From contig PFCD01000012.1 of assembly GCA_002778455.1 (NCBI GenBank), forward strand, positions 1,444 to 65,443: a stretch of 64,000 nt of DNA, read 5' to 3'. The notes beneath the pieces were generated by a model that saw only the letters and a program-made list of their open reading frames with translations, was not told the DNA's origin and searched no databases. This document shows positions 22,165 to 28,871 of the stretch, one piece after another (position 1 is the stretch's first letter; each line of letters begins with the position of its first letter). The position numbers and the translations under genes are program-made. Source of the DNA: Candidatus Micrarchaeota archaeon CG10_big_fil_rev_8_21_14_0_10_45_29. GTDB taxonomy: Archaea; Micrarchaeota; Micrarchaeia; Anstonellales; Anstonellaceae.

Positions 22165-23025
22165 ATGGATTCTTTTCCTATTTTAAAAAACGGCTTTATT
22201 ATCCTTGACAAGCCGCGCGGGCCATCATCGCACGAGATAACCGCTTATCTGAAAAAATTAATGAAATTAAAAAGATGCGGCAATGCAGGCACTTTGGACC
22301 CGCAGGTATCCGGCGTCATGATAATCGGCATCAATAAGGCAACACGGCTTTTGCAATACGTGGTGGGAAAAGAGAAAACTTATGTCGGCGTGATGAAAAC
22401 AAAAAACTTTCCCAACAATTTGCAGGAAGTGCAAAAAGAATTTGACAAGTTTGTGGGGCTGATTTCCCAAACCCCCCCAAAACAATCGGCAGTTGCAAAA
22501 AGAAAAAGAAAAAGGCAAATATTTTATTTCAACGCCCTGGAGCTTGAGGGCAGGCACATCTTATTTGAGGCAAAAGTTGAAGCAGGCACTTACATCAGAA
22601 ATTTATGCATCGATGCAGGCAAGGCGTTTGGCGGCGGGCGAATGGTTGAATTAAGGCGCACCGCAGTGGGAAAATTCGGGGAGGAACAGTGCGTGCGCCT
22701 GCCTCGGCTGGCGGATGCGGTATGGGAATGCAAAAACAACGGCTCCTCGAGAAGCGCAGATAGCTTAATAAAGCCCTGTGAGGATATATTGATGCTTACT
22801 CGCGTTTATATAAAAAATTCTGCCGAAGAAAAGGTTTGCCGCGGCGCGCCTCTGGCGTTTCCGGGTGTGGCATCCTTCGAGGCAAATTTTAAGAAAGGCG
22901 AGAATTTGGCATTGTTTGGCAGCGAGGGTGAATTAATAGGAGTTGCCTCCGCAGCGCTGGACTCAAGCGAATCAGGTGATAATAAAATAATCGCTCGCCC
23001 GAGGACAATGATAAAAAGCATTTGA
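22165..23025 (+). CDS. cbf5: tRNA/rRNA pseudouridine synthase Cbf5 (TruB family with PUA domain)
   Basis: LDKPRGPSSHEI and GTLDPQVSGV catalytic-Asp motif, with a C-terminal PUA-like region. Confidence 0.9.
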   Translation: MDSFPILKNGFIILDKPRGPSSHEITAYLKKLMKLKRCGNAGTLDPQVSGVMIIGINKATRLLQYVVGKEKTYVGVMKTKNFPNNLQEVQKEFDKFVGLISQTPPKQSAVAKRKRKRQIFYFNALELEGRHILFEAKVEAGTYIRNLCIDAGKAFGGGRMVELRRTAVGKFGEEQCVRLPRLADAVWECKNNGSSRSADSLIKPCEDILMLTRVYIKNSAEEKVCRGAPLAFPGVASFEANFKKGENLALFGSEGELIGVASAALDSSESGDNKIIARPRTMIKSI

Positions 23026-23075
23026 AATCATTTGCATGGAAGCGAAAATTGATTTGAATCCGAAATTACATTTAT

Positions 23076-23215
23076 GCCGGGATCGCATAACCTGGTAGTG
23101 CGCACGCCTGGAAGAGCTTTTCTTTTCTTTAGAAGAAAAGAAAACCTCGGAAAAGAAAAGAATCCTGGGAGCGTGTTCCCGCAAGGGTTTGTGGGTTCAA
23201 ATCCCACTTCCGGCG
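23076..23215 (+). tRNA. tRNA-Ser (anticodon GGA) with a 56-nt intron at the canonical 37/38 position
   Basis: Hand-folded. Acceptor GCCGGGA/TTCCGGC (one G-U pair). D arm GCAT..GTGC. Anticodon stem CACGC/GCGTG. Loop CTGGAA then intron then A. Long variable arm CCC-GCAA-GGG. T arm GTGGG-TTCAAAT-CCCAC. Discriminator G. No encoded CCA. Confidence 0.8.
23114..23169 (+). other. tRNA-Ser intron
   Basis: Needed to join the anticodon-stem halves. Contains a perfect 12-bp A/T/C hairpin TTTTCTTTTCTT-TAG-AAGAAAAGAAAA. The bulge-helix-bulge geometry was not verified, so boundaries are good to within a few nt. Confidence 0.6.
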
Positions 23216-23369
23216 TACAAACGCCTTCAGTGGTTTTGCGCTTTGCGCAAAATCTCTCCAGCCCTTCGGGCTGAAGATCCCACTTCCGGCGTACAAACGC
23301 CTTCAGTGGTTTTTTGCCGATGCAAAAAATCGCCCCAAACCTAGCGGTTTGAGGCTCCCACTTCCGGCG
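23201..23369 (+). repeat. Tandem re-occurrence of the tRNA-Ser 3' end plus trailer
   Basis: The 37-mer ATCCCACTTCCGGCGTACAAACGCCTTCAGTGGTTTT occurs at 23201-23237 (overlapping the tRNA 3' end) and at 23277-23313. The 14-nt core TCCCACTTCCGGCG occurs again at 23356-23369. Confidence 0.85.
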
Positions 23370-23375
23370 CCCATG

Positions 23376-23386
23376 TTTATAAAAAA
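23376..23386 (+). promoter_or_regulatory. Candidate TATA box (TTTATAAAAAA) for the rps13 operon
   Basis: A/T box 40-50 nt upstream of the rps13 start. Inferred from sequence only. Confidence 0.35.
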
Positions 23387-23425
23387 TGTTTGTAAAAAAA
23401 TTGGAAAAAAATTTATGGTGATAGG

Positions 23426-24037
23426 ATGGGAATGGCAAAAAAAGCAGAAAAAAAACCTAAAGGAAAACGCCCGCAGGAGCAGGAAATGCGCGTTCCGACC
23501 TCTGTTGACGGAAAAGAATTGAGGGGAATCGTGCGCATAGCCGGAAGAGACCTCAAGGGGCACTGGAAGCTCACGCGCGCATTGCAGACGATAAAAGGGC
23601 TTGGCCCCTCAATAGGCAAAGTTCTCTCAAAGGCGGTAATAACCCAGCTCTCATTAACCAACAAGACGCTTGTAGGGGAGTTGAGCGAGAAACAGGTGGA
23701 GCAAATAGAGCAAATAATCTCAAATCCCTCAAAATGCGGAGTTGCAGACTTTATGCTAAACAGGCAAAGGGATTATGTCGGAGGAAAGCCGCATCATCTC
23801 ATCTCAACCGATCTGGCTTATGCAATAAAGCAGGATATTGACCATGAAAAAGATTCACAGACATGGAAAGGTTACAGGCATTCATACGGGCAGCCGGTGC
23901 GGGGGCAGAGAACCCGCACAACCGGAAGAAAAGGCATGTCTGTCGGTGTCATGAAGAAGGCCGCAAAGGCGGGAGCCGCCGCGGCATCAGCCGCAACCGG
24001 AGCCGACAAAGGCAAGGAAAAGGCGGAGAAGAAGTAG
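23426..24037 (+). CDS. rps13: 30S ribosomal protein uS13
   Basis: IVRIAGRDLKGHWKLTRALQTIKGLG core with Lys/Ala-rich N- and C-terminal extensions. Alternative starts at 23432 and at an internal MRVPTS. Confidence 0.9.
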   Translation: MGMAKKAEKKPKGKRPQEQEMRVPTSVDGKELRGIVRIAGRDLKGHWKLTRALQTIKGLGPSIGKVLSKAVITQLSLTNKTLVGELSEKQVEQIEQIISNPSKCGVADFMLNRQRDYVGGKPHHLISTDLAYAIKQDIDHEKDSQTWKGYRHSYGQPVRGQRTRTTGRKGMSVGVMKKAAKAGAAAASAATGADKGKEKAEKK

Positions 24038-24046
24038 GTGATATGA

Positions 24047-24631
24047 ATGGGTGACCCAAAAAGACGACGTCCAAAAGCACAGGCTCCGCGAAAGGTTTGG
24101 GATTCTGACAGGATTAAGGAAGAATCAACTCTAAGGCGGGAATACGGGCTTAGAAGGACTCGCGAACTCTGGACAACTATGGCAGGATTAAAATCTTTAA
24201 GAAATGCGGCAAGGCAGCTTCTCTCCTTGGGAGATGAGGGTGAGCGAAGAGGCAGAACACTTGTTGATAAGCTAAAGCGCATCGGCATTGCCAAAAAGGA
24301 CATGACATTGGACGACATTCTTGCCCTTTCCGTGCGCGACTTTCTTGAGAGGCGGCTGCAGACGCTTGTGCTAAAGCGCGGGCTTGCAAGAACCCCTGCG
24401 CAGGCAAGGCAGCTTATTGTGCACGGCTTTATTTCCGTTGGCGGCAGGAGGGTAAATATTCCCTCATATGTTGTGAATGCAAAAGAGGAGAGCACAATCT
24501 CATACTTTAAGGCAATAGACATCAGCATTCCCGAGGAGGAAAAGCAGGAGAAGCCCTCGCGCGCAAAGGCGGAAGAGGCTCCTGCAAAAGAGGGTGCGCC
24601 CGCCCTTGAAGCAAAAGCGGAGGGCAATTAG
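24047..24631 (+). CDS. rps4: 30S ribosomal protein uS4
   Basis: [16 protein letters not shown]-terminus and S4 domain [40 protein letters not shown]. Confidence 0.93.
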
Positions 24632-24640
24632 GTGATACTT

Positions 24641-25288
24641 ATGGCAGAGACACAAAATGAAAAGCCGGCGGAAACAGGGCAAAAATCAGCAAAAAACGAT
24701 GCTGCAAAACCAATCGCAGAGCCAAAGGGCTCTTCGGCAGAAAAGGCAGCCTCTTTGGAAAAAACCGGGGTGAAGCCAGATACGCCGCCGCAAAAGCCGG
24801 CAGAAGCTGAGCGCAGAACGCCTTCGTTTTCAGGCTCCAGGCGCGATGAAGGGCGCCCGCGCTTTGGCAGGGGAAGAATGCCTATCCGAAACTATGCGCA
24901 AGGCCCGATAAAATGGGCGGTTTGCAATGTATTCTCCTCAAAAAACAACACAATAATCACAATAACCGACCTCTCCGGCGCCGAAACTCTCTCAAAAGGG
25001 ACTGGAGGCATGATAGTTAAAGCCGACAGGGAGGAGGGAAAGCCATACGCGGCAATGCAGGCGACAATACGCGCAGTAGCCGAGGCAAAAACAAGAGGGA
25101 TAACCGGATTGCATATAAGGATTCGCGCCCCAGGGGGGCATGGCACAAAGACGCCCGGCGCAGGAGCGCAGGCAGTTGTGCGAACCGTTGCGCGCCAGGG
25201 AGTGCGGGTTGGAAAAATCGAGGACGTAACTCCTGTTCCGACAGACACTACAAAAAGGCCGGGCGGAAGAAGAGGAAGGCGAGTATAA
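24641..25288 (+). CDS. rps11: 30S ribosomal protein uS11 with ~85-aa Pro/Ala/Lys/Glu N-terminal extension
   Basis: Core [28 protein letters not shown]...[19 protein letters not shown]. The frame is open from the rps4 stop. An internal ATG at 24878 would give a conventional-length protein. Confidence 0.88.
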
Positions 25289-25301
25289 AGGGGGTTTTGT
25301 T

Positions 25302-25898
25302 ATGAAATTAAGCATAAAAAACGAGGACAAAACAAAGATGGACTTTTTGCTCAAGTCAACATCTGTCTCCTTTGCAAACCTTCTAAGGCGCTTTGTAATG
25401 AGCAGGGTGCCTGTGTTTGCAATAGACTCTGTAACATTTTATGAGAATTCAAGCCCTCTCTTTGACGAGTATATTGCGCACCGCATAGGAATGGTTCCCC
25501 TTAAATTGGGCACCGGAGTGCGCGATGAGGAGGAAGTGCTTTTCTCGCTTGACGCATCAGGCCCGGGAACTGTCCATTCATCGGCGCTCAAAAGCAGAAT
25601 GGATAAAATAAAAGTTGCAACAGAGAAAATACCTCTTCTCAAGCTTCTTGAGGGGCAGAATTTGCGCCTTGAGGCAAAGGCAATAAGCGGAATCGGCAGG
25701 GACCACGCCAAATACCAGGCAGGGCTTGCCTCATATAATATACTTGAGGGCGGAAACGACTTTGAGTTTGAAATTGAGAGTTTTATGCAGATTTCTCCGC
25801 GCGACATGGCGTTAAAATCCGCGGATGCAATATCGCAAAGGTGCACAGAGCTTGCAAAAGGGCTCAATGAGATAAAAAAGGAGGCAAAGAAGAAATAA
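25302..25898 (+). CDS. rpoD: DNA-directed RNA polymerase subunit D (Rpo3), short form
   Basis: FANLLRRFVMSRVPVFAIDSVTFYENSSPLFDEYIAHRIGMVPL is the Rpo3/RpoA-like dimerisation domain. Conserved position after rps11. No Cys cluster, so no Fe-S domain. Confidence 0.88.
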   Translation: MKLSIKNEDKTKMDFLLKSTSVSFANLLRRFVMSRVPVFAIDSVTFYENSSPLFDEYIAHRIGMVPLKLGTGVRDEEEVLFSLDASGPGTVHSSALKSRMDKIKVATEKIPLLKLLEGQNLRLEAKAISGIGRDHAKYQAGLASYNILEGGNDFEFEIESFMQISPRDMALKSADAISQRCTELAKGLNEIKKEAKKK

Positions 25899-25907
25899 TA
25901 TTTGCAT

Positions 25908-25992
25908 GCAGGGGTAGCAAAGCCTGGTCAAACGCGCTAGCTTGAGGGGCTAGTCACTTAGGTGTTCGTGGGTTCAAATCCCTCCCCCTGCA
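25908..25992 (+). tRNA. tRNA-Leu (anticodon GAG)
   Basis: Hand-folded. Acceptor GCAGGGG/CCCCTGC. Anticodon arm CTAGC-TTGAGGG-GCTAG. Long variable arm. T arm GTGGG-TTCAAAT-CCCTC with one U-U mismatch. Discriminator A. Followed by a T6 run. Confidence 0.8.
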
Positions 25993-25995
25993 AGC

Positions 25996-26018
25996 TTTTT
26001 TCTGCGGAGCAGAAAAAA
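25996..26018 (+). terminator. Stem-loop TTTTTTCTGC-GGA-GCAGAAAAAA directly after tRNA-Leu
   Basis: 10-bp perfect stem whose 5' arm is the oligo-T run. Plausibly an archaeal termination signal. Confidence 0.45.
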
Positions 26019-26163
26019 CCTTGGAAAATCGGCAAACGTCGGCAATGCCAGCTTAAAACAAGTGGATGGAAAAACTGGAAAACATTGGCAATGCCCGCGC
26101 AACACAAATGCAGAAAAAAGAAAATTGCAAGAAAAAGAAAAAATAATTTTAAAGAAATTATAG

Positions 26164-26484
26164 GTGAAAAATATGAAAAGAGCGAACAACAAAACAAGTG
26201 CAGGCTTTTGGAAAAGGGCAGATGACGCCCTCTCAAAGCCGGTGCGAGCTCGCAAGGCAATGAACCTCAGCAGGCTTTCAAGGATAACCAAGAAAGACGA
26301 AATGGTATTAATTGCGGGCAAAGTGCTCGGAGACGGGGAGCTTTCCCACCCCCTCACAATCGCAGCGCTGGGCTTTAGCAAAAGCGCATTGGATGCGATA
26401 AAAAGGGCGGGCGGAAAAATAGCCACAGTGGCGCAGTTGCGGGAAAAAAACCCCAAAGGAGAGGGGCTGAGGATTCTTATCTAG
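26164..26484 (+). CDS. rpl18e: 50S ribosomal protein eL18
   Basis: RADDALSKPVRARKAMNLSRLSRITKKDEMVLIAGKVLGDG motif. GTG start, with an alternative ATG at 26173. Confidence 0.9.
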   Translation: MKNMKRANNKTSAGFWKRADDALSKPVRARKAMNLSRLSRITKKDEMVLIAGKVLGDGELSHPLTIAALGFSKSALDAIKRAGGKIATVAQLREKNPKGEGLRILI

Positions 26485-26919
26485 GTGAGCATTATGAAAA
26501 TTTATGACGGAAACTCCCTCATCGCAGGAAGGCTTGCGGCAAAAGTCGCAAAAGACCTTATACACGGCGAAGAGGTTGCGGTAATAAACGCAAACGGGAT
26601 AGTGTTTAGCGGAAACCCGGCTGCTTATGTGGACCGCCTGCAAAGAAAGCGCAGGCTGACCGACAAGCGGGACCCTGAAAAGGCGGAAAAATTCCCGCGC
26701 GTTCCATATATGCTATTCAAAAAAACTGTGCGCGGAATGCTTCCAAAAAAAAGCCAGAGGGGAAGGGACGCGCTCAAGAAGCTAAAAGTTTACAATGGCG
26801 CTCCGGCGGAAATTGACGCCTCAAATGCTTTGCGCCCGCAGGATGCGCAGAAAACCGGGCTTCTCAAAAGCATAACGCTCGGAAACCTTTGCAAGGCATT
26901 CGGATACAAGAGCAGGTGA
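26485..26919 (+). CDS. rpl13: 50S ribosomal protein uL13
   Basis: IYDGNSLIAGRLAAKVAKDL and MLPKKSQRGRDALKKLKVY motifs. GTG start, with an alternative ATG at 26494. Confidence 0.92.
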   Translation: MSIMKIYDGNSLIAGRLAAKVAKDLIHGEEVAVINANGIVFSGNPAAYVDRLQRKRRLTDKRDPEKAEKFPRVPYMLFKKTVRGMLPKKSQRGRDALKKLKVYNGAPAEIDASNALRPQDAQKTGLLKSITLGNLCKAFGYKSR

Positions 26920-27359
26920 TGGTTATGGCAGCAAAAAAGAAAAAAACAAAATCAAAAAAGAAGGCGGGGATAGTTGCCCGAGGCAAGAGGAAAGAGAGCC
27001 TTGCGCGCGCCTCCATTTGCGAAGGCAAGGGAGTTGTTCGCATAAACTCGCACAACCTCAATGCAATCTCAAACCGCTACATAAAGGTGCTTATCAGCGA
27101 GCCGCTCTCAATAGCATCCGAACTCTCGCCCAAGGTTGACATTTCAGTCAATGTGCGCGGAGGCGGCGCGATGGGGCAGGCGCAGGCGGTAAGGCTTGCG
27201 GTCGCCCGCGCGCTTGTAGCATTTTCAAACGACCCCTCGCTCAAGGAGAGGATGCTTGAGCGCGACAAATTTTTGGTCGCGGAAGATTCAAGGCGTATTG
27301 AGCCCAAAAAATATATGGGGCCAAAAGCGCGTGCAAGAAAGCAAAAATCATACAGATAG
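26919..27359 (+). CDS. rps9: 30S ribosomal protein uS9
   Basis: ARGKRKESLARASI and GGGAMGQAQAVRLAVARAL motifs, with C-terminal KQKSYR. The ATG overlaps the rpl13 TGA by 1 nt. Confidence 0.92.
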   Translation: MVMAAKKKKTKSKKKAGIVARGKRKESLARASICEGKGVVRINSHNLNAISNRYIKVLISEPLSIASELSPKVDISVNVRGGGAMGQAQAVRLAVARALVAFSNDPSLKERMLERDKFLVAEDSRRIEPKKYMGPKARARKQKSYR

Positions 27360-27367
27360 GTGGATAT

Positions 27368-27565
27368 ATGTATTTTCCAATAAGATGTTTTACATGCGGC
27401 GCGCCGATTGCGCAGCATTGGGAGGAATACAACTCCCGCACAAAATCCGGAGACGAGCCTGCCAAGGTGCTCGATGACCTTGGCGTAAAGCGGGTTTGCT
27501 GCAGGCGCATGTTCATTTCGCATGTAGAAGTGATGGACAAGGTGGCGAAATACGACCGCCTATGA
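27368..27565 (+). CDS. rpoN: DNA-directed RNA polymerase subunit N (Rpo10)
   Basis: PIRCFTCGAPIA...KRVCCRRM zinc-bundle motif, 65 aa. Confidence 0.92.
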   Translation: MYFPIRCFTCGAPIAQHWEEYNSRTKSGDEPAKVLDDLGVKRVCCRRMFISHVEVMDKVAKYDRL

Positions 27566-27638
27566 GTTGATAAAAAAATTAATTTGGGGCCCGCTTGCCC
27601 TTTTTGGGCAAGGATCCCACAAAATACATTTGCATTTT

Positions 27639-27711
27639 GGGGCTGTGAGGTAATCTGGTATCCTGCCGGCATGGGGTGCCGGCTATCCGAGTTCAAATCT
27701 TGGCGGCCCCA
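27639..27711 (+). tRNA. tRNA-Pro (anticodon GGG)
   Basis: Hand-folded. Acceptor GGGGCTG/CGGCCCC (one G-U pair). Anticodon arm CCGGC-ATGGGGT-GCCGG. T arm CCGAG-TTCAAAT-CTTGG. Discriminator A. No encoded CCA. Confidence 0.82.
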
Positions 27712-27818
27712 AGTTGTTATAAGAAAATATGCGGGACCGCCATTTCGCTTTCGGCGAAATCCGCCCAACGCTTGCGCGTTGAGCGTCTTGGCGGCCCCAA
27801 GTTATTATAAGAAAATAT
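27698..27818 (+). repeat. Duplication of the tRNA-Pro 3' end plus trailer
   Basis: The 33-mer TCTTGGCGGCCCCAAGTTGTTATAAGAAAATAT at 27698-27730 (overlapping the tRNA 3' end) recurs at 27786-27818 with one G-to-A change. The 55-nt spacer is built of two hairpins. Confidence 0.85.
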
Positions 27819-27920
27819 TCGCAAGTGTTTTTCCGAGAGTAGCCCCGAACCGCTAAGGAGGGCACATCCCCCCGAAACAGTTTGAGAGTGTTTGCGGAAC
27901 TCTTGCAAAGGTGATTTAAA

Positions 27921-28871
27921 ATGGCAGACGGAATGTTGATAAAGCAGGAAAAATACCTGGAAACAGGAATACACATAGGCACAAAGCTGCGCACCATCGA
28001 TATGGCGCGATTTATTTACCGCACAAGAAACGACGGATTATATGTGCTTGACCTCAGGCAGGTTGATGAAAAGATACGCCTTGCAGGCAAAGTTATCTGC
28101 AAATTCGAGCCGGCAGAAATAGTGGTTGTGGCAAGCAGAACCTACTCTTCAATGGCGGCAAAGGCGTTTGCACAAATTTCAGGGTGCAAAGTAATCGGCG
28201 GAAGGTTTGTTCCCGGCGCATTTACCAATGTGGCAAGGTCGGATTTTGTTGAGCCAAAGCTTGTAATAATTTGCGACCCAAAGGGCGAGAGGCAGGCCGT
28301 AGTGGAGTGCGGCAAGATGGGAATTCCCACAATAGGGCTGTGCGACACAGACAATTTCACAATGTTCATAGACTGGGCAATACCATGCAATAACAAGGGA
28401 AGGCGCTCGCTCTCCTTAATATTCTGGCTTCTTGCAAGAGAAATGGCAATGGGCTCAGGCAAAGTGTCTTCATATGATGACTTTACTCCGACATTTGAGG
28501 AGTTTGAAACAATTGCAGGCGCAATAGCGGACGAGGAGATGGCTCAAAAGCACGGCAAAAAGCCGGGTCCCGGGCCTGCAGTTCCCTCCGCGGGCGGGGA
28601 TGATTCCTCCGGCGGGGAAAAAGAGGAAGATGCGCCAGAGCCTTCGGAAGAAAAAGAGGATGCAACAAAAAATTCCGAAGACGAGGGCAAAAAGCCCAAA
28701 AAAGCAAAGGCAAAAAAGGCAGTAAAAAAGGCAGAAGAGAAAAAGCCTGAGCCAAAAAAAGAAGACGAGAAAAAGCCCGCCAAGCAGGATGAAAAAAAGC
28801 CTGAGACAAAAAAAGCGGCGGAAAAGCCTGTTAAGGAAGAGGGCACCGATGCAACTAAAGAGGAGAAATAA
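27921..28871 (+). CDS. rps2: 30S ribosomal protein uS2 with ~105-aa Lys/Glu/Pro/Asp-rich C-terminal tail
   Basis: YLETGIHIGTKLRT and VIICDPKGERQAVVECGKMGIPTIGLCDTDN core, then a KKPKKAKAKKAVKKAEEKKPEPKKEDEKKP-type tail. Confidence 0.92.
   Translation: MADGMLIKQEKYLETGIHIGTKLRTIDMARFIYRTRNDGLYVLDLRQVDEKIRLAGKVICKFEPAEIVVVASRTYSSMAAKAFAQISGCKVIGGRFVPGAFTNVARSDFVEPKLVIICDPKGERQAVVECGKMGIPTIGLCDTDNFTMFIDWAIPCNNKGRRSLSLIFWLLAREMAMGSGKVSSYDDFTPTFEEFETIAGAIADEEMAQKHGKKPGPGPAVPSAGGDDSSGGEKEEDAPEPSEEKEDATKNSEDEGKKPKKAKAKKAVKKAEEKKPEPKKEDEKKPAKQDEKKPETKKAAEKPVKEEGTDATKEEK

Follow-up and report, generated by a model that had tools for sequence, protein, structure and literature searches.

The locus lies in a 64,000-nt stretch of the genome of Candidatus Micrarchaeota archaeon CG10_big_fil_rev_8_21_14_0_10_45_29, referred to here as the window, which forms part of contig C14 of a 1.15-Mb assembly (genome G000; 20 contigs, about 85% complete). 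An intact tRNA-Pro(GGG) gene without encoded CCA occupies positions 27639–27711 (Rfam RF00005, 49 bits; 27638–27712 by ARAGORN) and is the single Pro-GGG gene that ARAGORN finds in this genome. It was missed by a first Rfam pass at the gathering threshold because of the speed filters, not because the gene is odd; tRNA is the sole significant Rfam family between 22900 and 28000. All parts of this locus described below are on the + strand.

As the initial annotation had reported, the 33 nt at 27698–27730 are present again at 27786–27818 with one G-to-A change. The pair stretches to 36 nt (27698–27733 and 27786–27821; 34 of 36 positions identical) at a spacing of 88 nt. The 33-mer comprises the segment A1 (27698–27711), which corresponds to tRNA nt 60–73 (the last T-loop base T60, the 3′ strands of the T-stem and acceptor stem, and the discriminator), and 19 nt of trailer. 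This trailer (copy 1, 27712–27733) is AT-rich and TATA-like, and shares 20 of its 22 bases with trailer copy 2 (27800–27821), the probable promoter region of rps2. Downstream are a conserved leader and the rps2 start codon, an ATG at 27921. The leader (27819–27920) is conserved across genera, with the motifs CGCAAGTG ... CCGAAAGTAGCC ... ATTTGCGG ... CTCTTGCAAAGGTGA before the ATG, and may be a ribosomal-protein leader or regulatory RNA.

Between the trailer copies is a folded module. The segment A′ (27731–27742), antisense to A, reads GGGACCGCCA, the reverse complement of tRNA nt 62–71 with one mismatch; it is identified from folding and covariation. Covariation likewise defines the hairpins H1 (27743–27759), in which a GC core is flanked by a T-run in the 5′ arm and an A-run in the 3′ arm, and H2 (27766–27781, CAACGC-TTGC-GCGTTG). 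The module ends in A2 (27786–27799), an exact second copy of tRNA nt 60–73, which in minimum-free-energy folds pairs with A′ and closes a three-way junction (−36.9 kcal/mol, z = −3.7 for the module). Both hairpins described earlier for the spacer are present, as covarying helices of a conserved family rather than incidental GC hairpins. A third hairpin proposed in the initial annotation, CTTGG-CGGCC-CCAAG, does not form in the predicted folds and is missing at the orthologous loci of the related genomes G001 and G089.

The tail repeat is the mark of a family of gene-less structured cassettes that immediately follow tRNA genes within a single order of Micrarchaeota, and the 55-nt spacer with the second copy at tRNA-Pro is one member of this family. 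ARAGORN identifies 42 tRNAs in G000, many with introns, of which ten repeat their last 13–15 nt at 60–217 nt downstream, some of them two or three times. At three further repeat loci the tRNA was overlooked by ARAGORN or has a masked 5′ part, so that at least 13 tRNAs have tail repeats; for each tRNA, the probability that a given 13-mer recurs by chance within 250 nt is about 4e-6. In every case nt 61–73 are repeated, usually together with T60. The tRNA-Leu at 25908, described as an exception at the outset, has no downstream repeat of its tail.

Most of these loci share one layout, consisting of a linker, A′, H1, H2, 3–5 nt, and T60 with A2, over about 65–90 nt. The linker is often close to CTCGCTnnGCTCGYG, A′ spans 7–12 nt complementary to A (antisense to tRNA nt 61–73), and H2 often reads CCAAC...GTTG. 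The tRNA-Pro cassette has all the usual parts and differs in its linker alone, the AT-rich trailer copy 1 standing where most cassettes have a GC-rich linker. The recurrence of this organization recognized in the initial annotation therefore holds, but its anatomy, a 3′-end hairpin with an A/T tail, does not: the real unit is the 14-nt tail, A′ and two hairpins. Likewise the 33-nt repeat is real, but only 14 nt of it are the recurring tail, the other 19–22 nt being a locus-specific extension from the region upstream of rps2.

A covariance model, R1, was trained on 11 cassettes from three genomes. Across the three helices of the training alignment, pairing extends to 84% of cells (66% in shuffles), and changes on both sides are seen at 18 of the 24 pairs. 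In G000 the model has 12 matches, all directly behind tRNA 3′ ends and five of them outside the training set; the match at tRNA-Pro covers 27719–27799 (64 bits). In a sample of 151 genomes of the order, 39 contain R1 matches; these represent 16 of the 45 genera and 9 of the 12 families, and a single genome can have as many as 16 copies. Matches in a phylum-wide sample are confined to the families that it shares with the order sample, none occurring in roughly 100 genomes of families found only there. The distribution is patchy even within one genus. Together with the loci in G000, at least 13 in number, these 39 genomes argue strongly against chance and for a mechanism that recurs at tRNA 3′ ends, as had been suggested from two loci.

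Outside G000 there are 112 R1 matches, and in 90 of them the same 13-mer is found directly upstream (0–1 mismatch, rarely two), mostly ending 0–2 nt before the match. The two 13-mers agree perfectly in 71 matches, T60 is retained in 83, and the remaining matches mostly have more decayed copies. In an alignment of 34 cassettes drawn from 28 further genomes, the paired fraction of cells is 89%, compared with 63% in shuffles and 35–50% in slid controls, a value somewhat inflated by the fitting of the alignment to R1. Pairing reaches 95.6% of cells in H1 (both sides changed at five of eight pairs) and 97.9% in H2 (six of six); in the A′–A helix the value is 79% and each of the ten pairs shows compensatory change, giving 21 of 24 such pairs overall. 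The discriminator is paired with A′ in 27 of 31 cassettes, and UUCG-type loops are common. The architecture is present at more than 15 tRNA species, with linker and hairpins homologous across them, and A′ has the appearance of a plain reverse complement of A, which hints at a templated origin at the DNA level rather than at selection on the RNA.

A decayed tandem tRNA copy was rejected as the source of the cassette, since at G–U positions A′ is the Watson–Crick complement of A and not a match to the tRNA 5′ strands, and since on inspection H1 and H2 are homologous across unrelated tRNAs. A 25-mer from the T-arm and acceptor of tRNA-Pro retrieved two unrelated contigs from metagenomes and no strain-level alleles.

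Which of the two copies the tRNA uses can be judged where they differ. Compared with 15 imperfect downstream copies, A1 fits the 5′ acceptor and T-stem strands of the tRNA better in 11 cases, equally well in four and never worse, which points to A1 as the working end and to A2 as a spare that can decay; A2 often lacks C61 or acceptor bases. In tRNA-Leu(TAG) of G000, A1 has changed jointly with its T-stem partner and A2 retains the form seen in G003. On this comparison of sequences, A1 is most probably the working 3′ strand of tRNA-Pro also. The minimum-free-energy fold of tRNA plus cassette combines a cloverleaf built on A1 with the three-way junction closed by A′ and A2 (z = −3.3). The centroid structure for tRNA-Val is the mirror conformer, in which A1 is paired with A′ and the acceptor 5′ strand with A2. 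The combined RNA is accordingly predicted to be thermodynamically bistable; ‘masking’ by A′ is thus symmetrical and by itself lends no support to A1. The order of transcription would favour the conformer with the cloverleaf on A1.

The tRNA-Pro/rps2 junction has different states among relatives. It is empty in G010, G012, G006 and G016, in which the AT-rich box adjoins the tRNA end and is followed by the conserved rps2 leader. It is filled, with the native AT-rich trailer as linker, in G000 and G001, of the same genus, and in G089, of another genus. Cassettes with the usual GC-rich linker are found in G004 (two identical cassettes in tandem) and G002 (degenerate), and G003 has another type of element. 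The tRNA-Pro(GGG) gene itself is polymorphic for a T-arm intron at 53/54, present in G012, G089, G001, G006 and G016 and absent from G000, G002, G003 and G004, a presence/absence difference found within a genus.

The tRNA-Pro cassettes of G000 and G089 are clearly orthologous. Within each genome the two copies of A plus trailer match over 26–40 nt, and between genomes they differ; A′ follows the A of its own lineage, with CCGCC in G000 and CCACC in G089 and G001. Likeness within and difference between genomes indicates gene conversion. From these sequences we read the pattern as concerted evolution, in which gene conversion or unequal exchange would begin in the shared A and proceed rightward. 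Such a direction would also account for tandem cassettes elsewhere that have identical 5′ ends and divergent H2 hairpins, as behind tRNA-Ser(GGA) in the window and tRNA-Ser(GCT) on C20.

Integration by tyrosine integrases classically leaves a tRNA 3′ end repeated in direct orientation, and such repeats flank the insert here. Two tyrosine integrase genes of G000 also adjoin tRNAs near contig ends, at C12:2636–3434 (tRNA-Ser(GCT)) and C3:43490–44453 (tRNA-Phe). The cassettes could on these grounds be integration scars, attL and attR sites from between which the cargo has been deleted, an origin that we consider very improbable. The interior is a conserved structured family rather than a set of random remnants, its 55 nt at tRNA-Pro hold neither an integrase fragment nor an ORF, and more than 15 tRNA species have the same architecture. 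A real integrase-bearing element does stand at tRNA-Ser(GCT), but apart from the cassettes; it splits the tRNA (C12) from an older cassette array, which it displaced to another contig (C20). The tail copies there (C20:35550–35720), with two cassettes, fit an integrated element that broke the assembly.

Viral contigs likewise gave nothing that matched. The initial annotation had proposed to seek the 33-mer in mobile-element contigs; a 26-mer of the repeat has no match in the viral ones, and the 160 loci found with a 15-nt linker consensus and a linker-plus-T-run pattern are chance matches, none fitting R1. Attachment sites of the SSV and pNOB8 types in archaea and of the P4 type in bacteria share with the cassettes direct repeats of tRNA 3′ ends that start in or near the T-loop, but the cassettes enclose 50–100 nt of conserved folded sequence instead of kilobases of cargo, have no integrase inside, contain an antisense segment and stand at many tRNA species. 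Other loci and other genomes do show the pattern, and no remnant of an integrated element explains the cases.

A more general form of mobility, a non-autonomous element that recognises the universal T-loop and whose staggered cut duplicates nt 60–73, would fit a 14-nt duplication with its left edge fixed at T60 in many different tRNAs. It would also fit the homology of linker and hairpins across tRNA species and the presence of cassettes at different tRNAs in species of one genus. The enzyme could be casposase-like (casposases duplicate 14–15 bp of target at tRNA 3′ ends; Hickman et al. 2020, PMC6977970) or an unknown integrase. We regard such an element as improbable. The copies share no terminal inverted repeats and their ends are tRNA-specific, and A′ is specific to the target although it lies inside the element. 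The length of the repeat varies (14 nt at most loci; 18, 26, 33–36 and about 40 nt at others), and copies within a genome are diverged, none being near-identical at different tRNAs. Cassettes at Ser-TGA, Ser-GCT, Leu-TAG and Pro-GGG are, moreover, shared between species or genera, which fits vertical descent with differential loss. The enzymatic repertoire of G000, 85% complete, also speaks against it: the sole Cas1 belongs to a type V CRISPR locus, and neither a reverse transcriptase (no RVT_1 match) nor a Y1 transposase was found.

Individual element classes were rejected on similar grounds. PATEs, derived from IS200/IS605 elements, have subterminal hairpins, insert without target duplication and depend on a Y1 transposase in the lineage; the cassettes have hairpins, but here the target is duplicated, and the 85%-complete G000 assembly has no Y1 transposase. 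A retro-element is likewise rejected, there being no RVT_1 match in that assembly. Casposons resemble the cassettes in duplicating 14–15 bp at the extreme 3′ terminus of tRNA genes (PMC6977970), but the cassettes have no casposase, polB or shared terminal inverted repeats, and whereas all 14 duplicated nt of a cassette are tRNA sequence, the tRNA contributes just 4 bp to the duplication in M. mazei (PMC6977970). The single Cas1 belongs to the type V CRISPR locus (C15:18700–23000), which encodes a 518-aa Cas12f/TnpB-like protein, Cas4, Cas2 and Cas1 next to an array of repeats of about 37 nt with a 71-nt period.

Because the left boundary of the duplication, between nt 59 and 60, is a known intron site in this phylum, the family bears on the origin of non-canonical tRNA introns and of fragmented tRNA genes. 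The Micrarchaeota member ARMAN-2 has 59/60 introns, one of them in tRNA-Pro(GGG), and its ε2 endonuclease can cleave, in vitro, a relaxed helix–bulge–helix (hBH) motif located there (Fujishima et al. 2011, PMC3239211). With these introns the cassettes have in common the lineage, the 59/60 boundary and a tRNA-Pro(GGG) carrier, and the sequence at the tRNA-Pro junction would allow the central helix of a relaxed hBH motif. The cassette could by extension be a newborn intron with an alternative 3′ exon: a broad-specificity splicing endonuclease would remove the stretch from A1 to just before A2 by splicing at 59/60, the tRNA would end in A2, and deletion of A1 would then yield a true T-loop intron.

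Several features are compatible with this reading, among them the start of the duplication exactly at nt 60, the ARMAN-2 precedent in introns and enzyme (PMC3239211), and a 408-aa endonuclease gene in G000 (C17:15653–15904 region). At tRNA-Pro the TGAG-CG-T before A2 fits a 4-bp helix with T-loop nt 54–57, without an adjoining inner helix; five of 12 cassettes in G000 fit the junction motif, true T-loop introns of relatives carry TGAA-AA-T at the same place, and the alternative conformer is predicted to be thermodynamically accessible. In other genomes, however, the motif is found in three of 34 and one of 78 cassettes, which is about chance level, and it is missing from the orthologous cassette of G001. 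A2 never fits the tRNA better than A1 and often lacks C61 or acceptor bases, and none of the 112 R1 matches outside G000 is a type-1 cassette in intron position, that is, without A1. Unlike the tRNAs with 59/60 introns, the cassette-bearing tRNA is complete without splicing, the downstream copy decays and the motif is not conserved; the mature sequence of tRNA-Pro is uninterrupted when A1 is used, so that removal of an intron is not required. We therefore hold the alternative-exon reading to be quite unlikely: splicing at the tRNA-Pro locus is possible, yet it is not what the cassette family is built for.

One tRNA of G104 combines two type-1 cassettes with a long intron on the anticodon side and another intron in the T-loop. 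The latter holds a degenerate hairpin of tail-like and antisense sequence and an H2-like hairpin, and may be a cassette turned intron.

Other element families also stand beside tRNAs. A second family of about 60 nt (CCCATATGGGGAACAC ... GGGTTTCACCCCC) starts 2 nt past the 3′ ends of several tRNAs in G000 (the C11:12562 region, C15:27721, C6:31521, C6:155382, C8:47176, and C11:18698 and 18784); one copy is found behind a TATA-like box with no tRNA, and in G072, G092 and G036 comparable sequence makes up a 59/60 intron within the T-loop. The third family begins with a T-loop-like GGTTCAAATGGTCAAA, continues with two hairpins and ends in ...GGCTGCR before a copy of the tRNA tail; it occurs in G000 at C6:123284, C1:11927 and 11848, C7:15559 and C17:58402. 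Its copy at tRNA-Leu(TAG) has an ortholog in G003, and both hairpins show compensatory changes between the two. A polypyrimidine/polypurine hairpin element forms the 37/38 intron of tRNA-Ser(GGA) in the window (23114–23169). As the same hairpin element is also found as a 3′ trailer after other tRNAs in G001 and G003, a single family can be both intron and trailer.

The released three-way junction might also act as a free-standing small RNA, either regulatory or mimicking tRNA, its tail serving as a 3′-processing signal; at tRNA-Pro this RNA would come from the duplicated promoter, and the duplicated AT-rich box (27712–27730) lies about 20–25 nt before A′. Helices are kept by compensatory change over genus-to-order distances, UUCG-type loops are common, A2 is mostly perfect (71 of 112 copies), and the RNAs of three E. 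coli tRNA-linked repeats bind Hfq and CsrA (PMC8144298). We think an independent RNA of this kind unlikely nonetheless: occurrence is uneven even among members of one genus, A2 copies decay and entire cassettes have been cleanly lost, the discriminator is base-paired as it is not in a tRNA-type substrate, no conserved single-stranded motif stands out and there is no match to an Rfam family.

The closest likeness is to the tRNA-linked repeats of E. coli, attributed to Egan and Landy 1978 by Stenum et al. 2021 (PMC8144298). [quoted passage not shown] The cassettes too are gene-less, lie immediately downstream of a tRNA on the same strand, end in an exact copy of the upstream 3′ end (14 of 14 nt at tRNA-Pro) and stand singly or in tandem. 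By analogy they can be taken as the archaeal counterpart of these repeats. They differ in lineage, in a copy of 14 nt (nt 60–73, no encoded CCA) rather than 18–19 bp, and in having an internal antisense segment that closes a three-way junction and two covarying hairpins; the Rfam search of 22900–28000 revealed no sequence or family relation to them. Plant mitochondrial t-elements possibly follow the same principle, a tRNA-like helix as an end-processing signal (Forner et al. 2007, PMC1920247). The cassettes differ from them in belonging to an unrelated lineage and in having a paired discriminator.

The explanation that we favour, with about even confidence, is a co-transcribed 3′-trailer cassette of the tRNA-linked-repeat kind whose spare tail is held by an internal antisense segment. 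The cassette would belong to the 3′ trailer of the tRNA transcript, as suggested by the promoter-free nature of the usual linkers and by a T-run terminator after the last copy of A. The tRNA uses A1, as the comparison of differing copies shows, and A′ would pair with the spare copy and close the three-way junction, as folding and covariation suggest, with sequestration of the duplicate tail as the likely role. Ordinary 3′ processing past the discriminator would then free the tRNA, and an RNase Z-like gene is present (C8:84194–85081). The direct repeats of A would promote amplification in tandem as well as clean loss and gene conversion. In the case of tRNA-Pro(GGG), a conversion or duplication event that began in A probably ran 19–22 nt rightward into the AT-rich region upstream of rps2, replacing the usual linker and giving rise to the 33–36-nt repeat. 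The patchy distribution and the decaying A2 copies argue against an essential function.

That a tRNA-specific A′ and A2 surround homologous hairpins at more than 15 tRNA species lies outside the trailer-cassette explanation. On a speculative reading that we think unlikely, one general, undescribed process at the junction of the universal T-loop and the 3′ strand of tRNA genes would, upon insertion, copy the 3′ strand of its target in both orientations (A′ and A2), making a class of structure-targeted gene-less elements; these would be the birth stage of non-canonical T-loop introns, and the process would underlie the tRNA-linked repeats of E. coli.

In annotation the cassettes mimic att sites and tRNA fragments and mislead programs that detect islands or annotate tRNAs; with R1, the archaeal family can be searched for. 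The local effect at tRNA-Pro is the duplication of the probable rps2 promoter. More broadly, the family offers testable substrates for the origin of non-canonical tRNA introns and would provide a structurally well-defined archaeal counterpart to an E. coli puzzle that dates from 1978.
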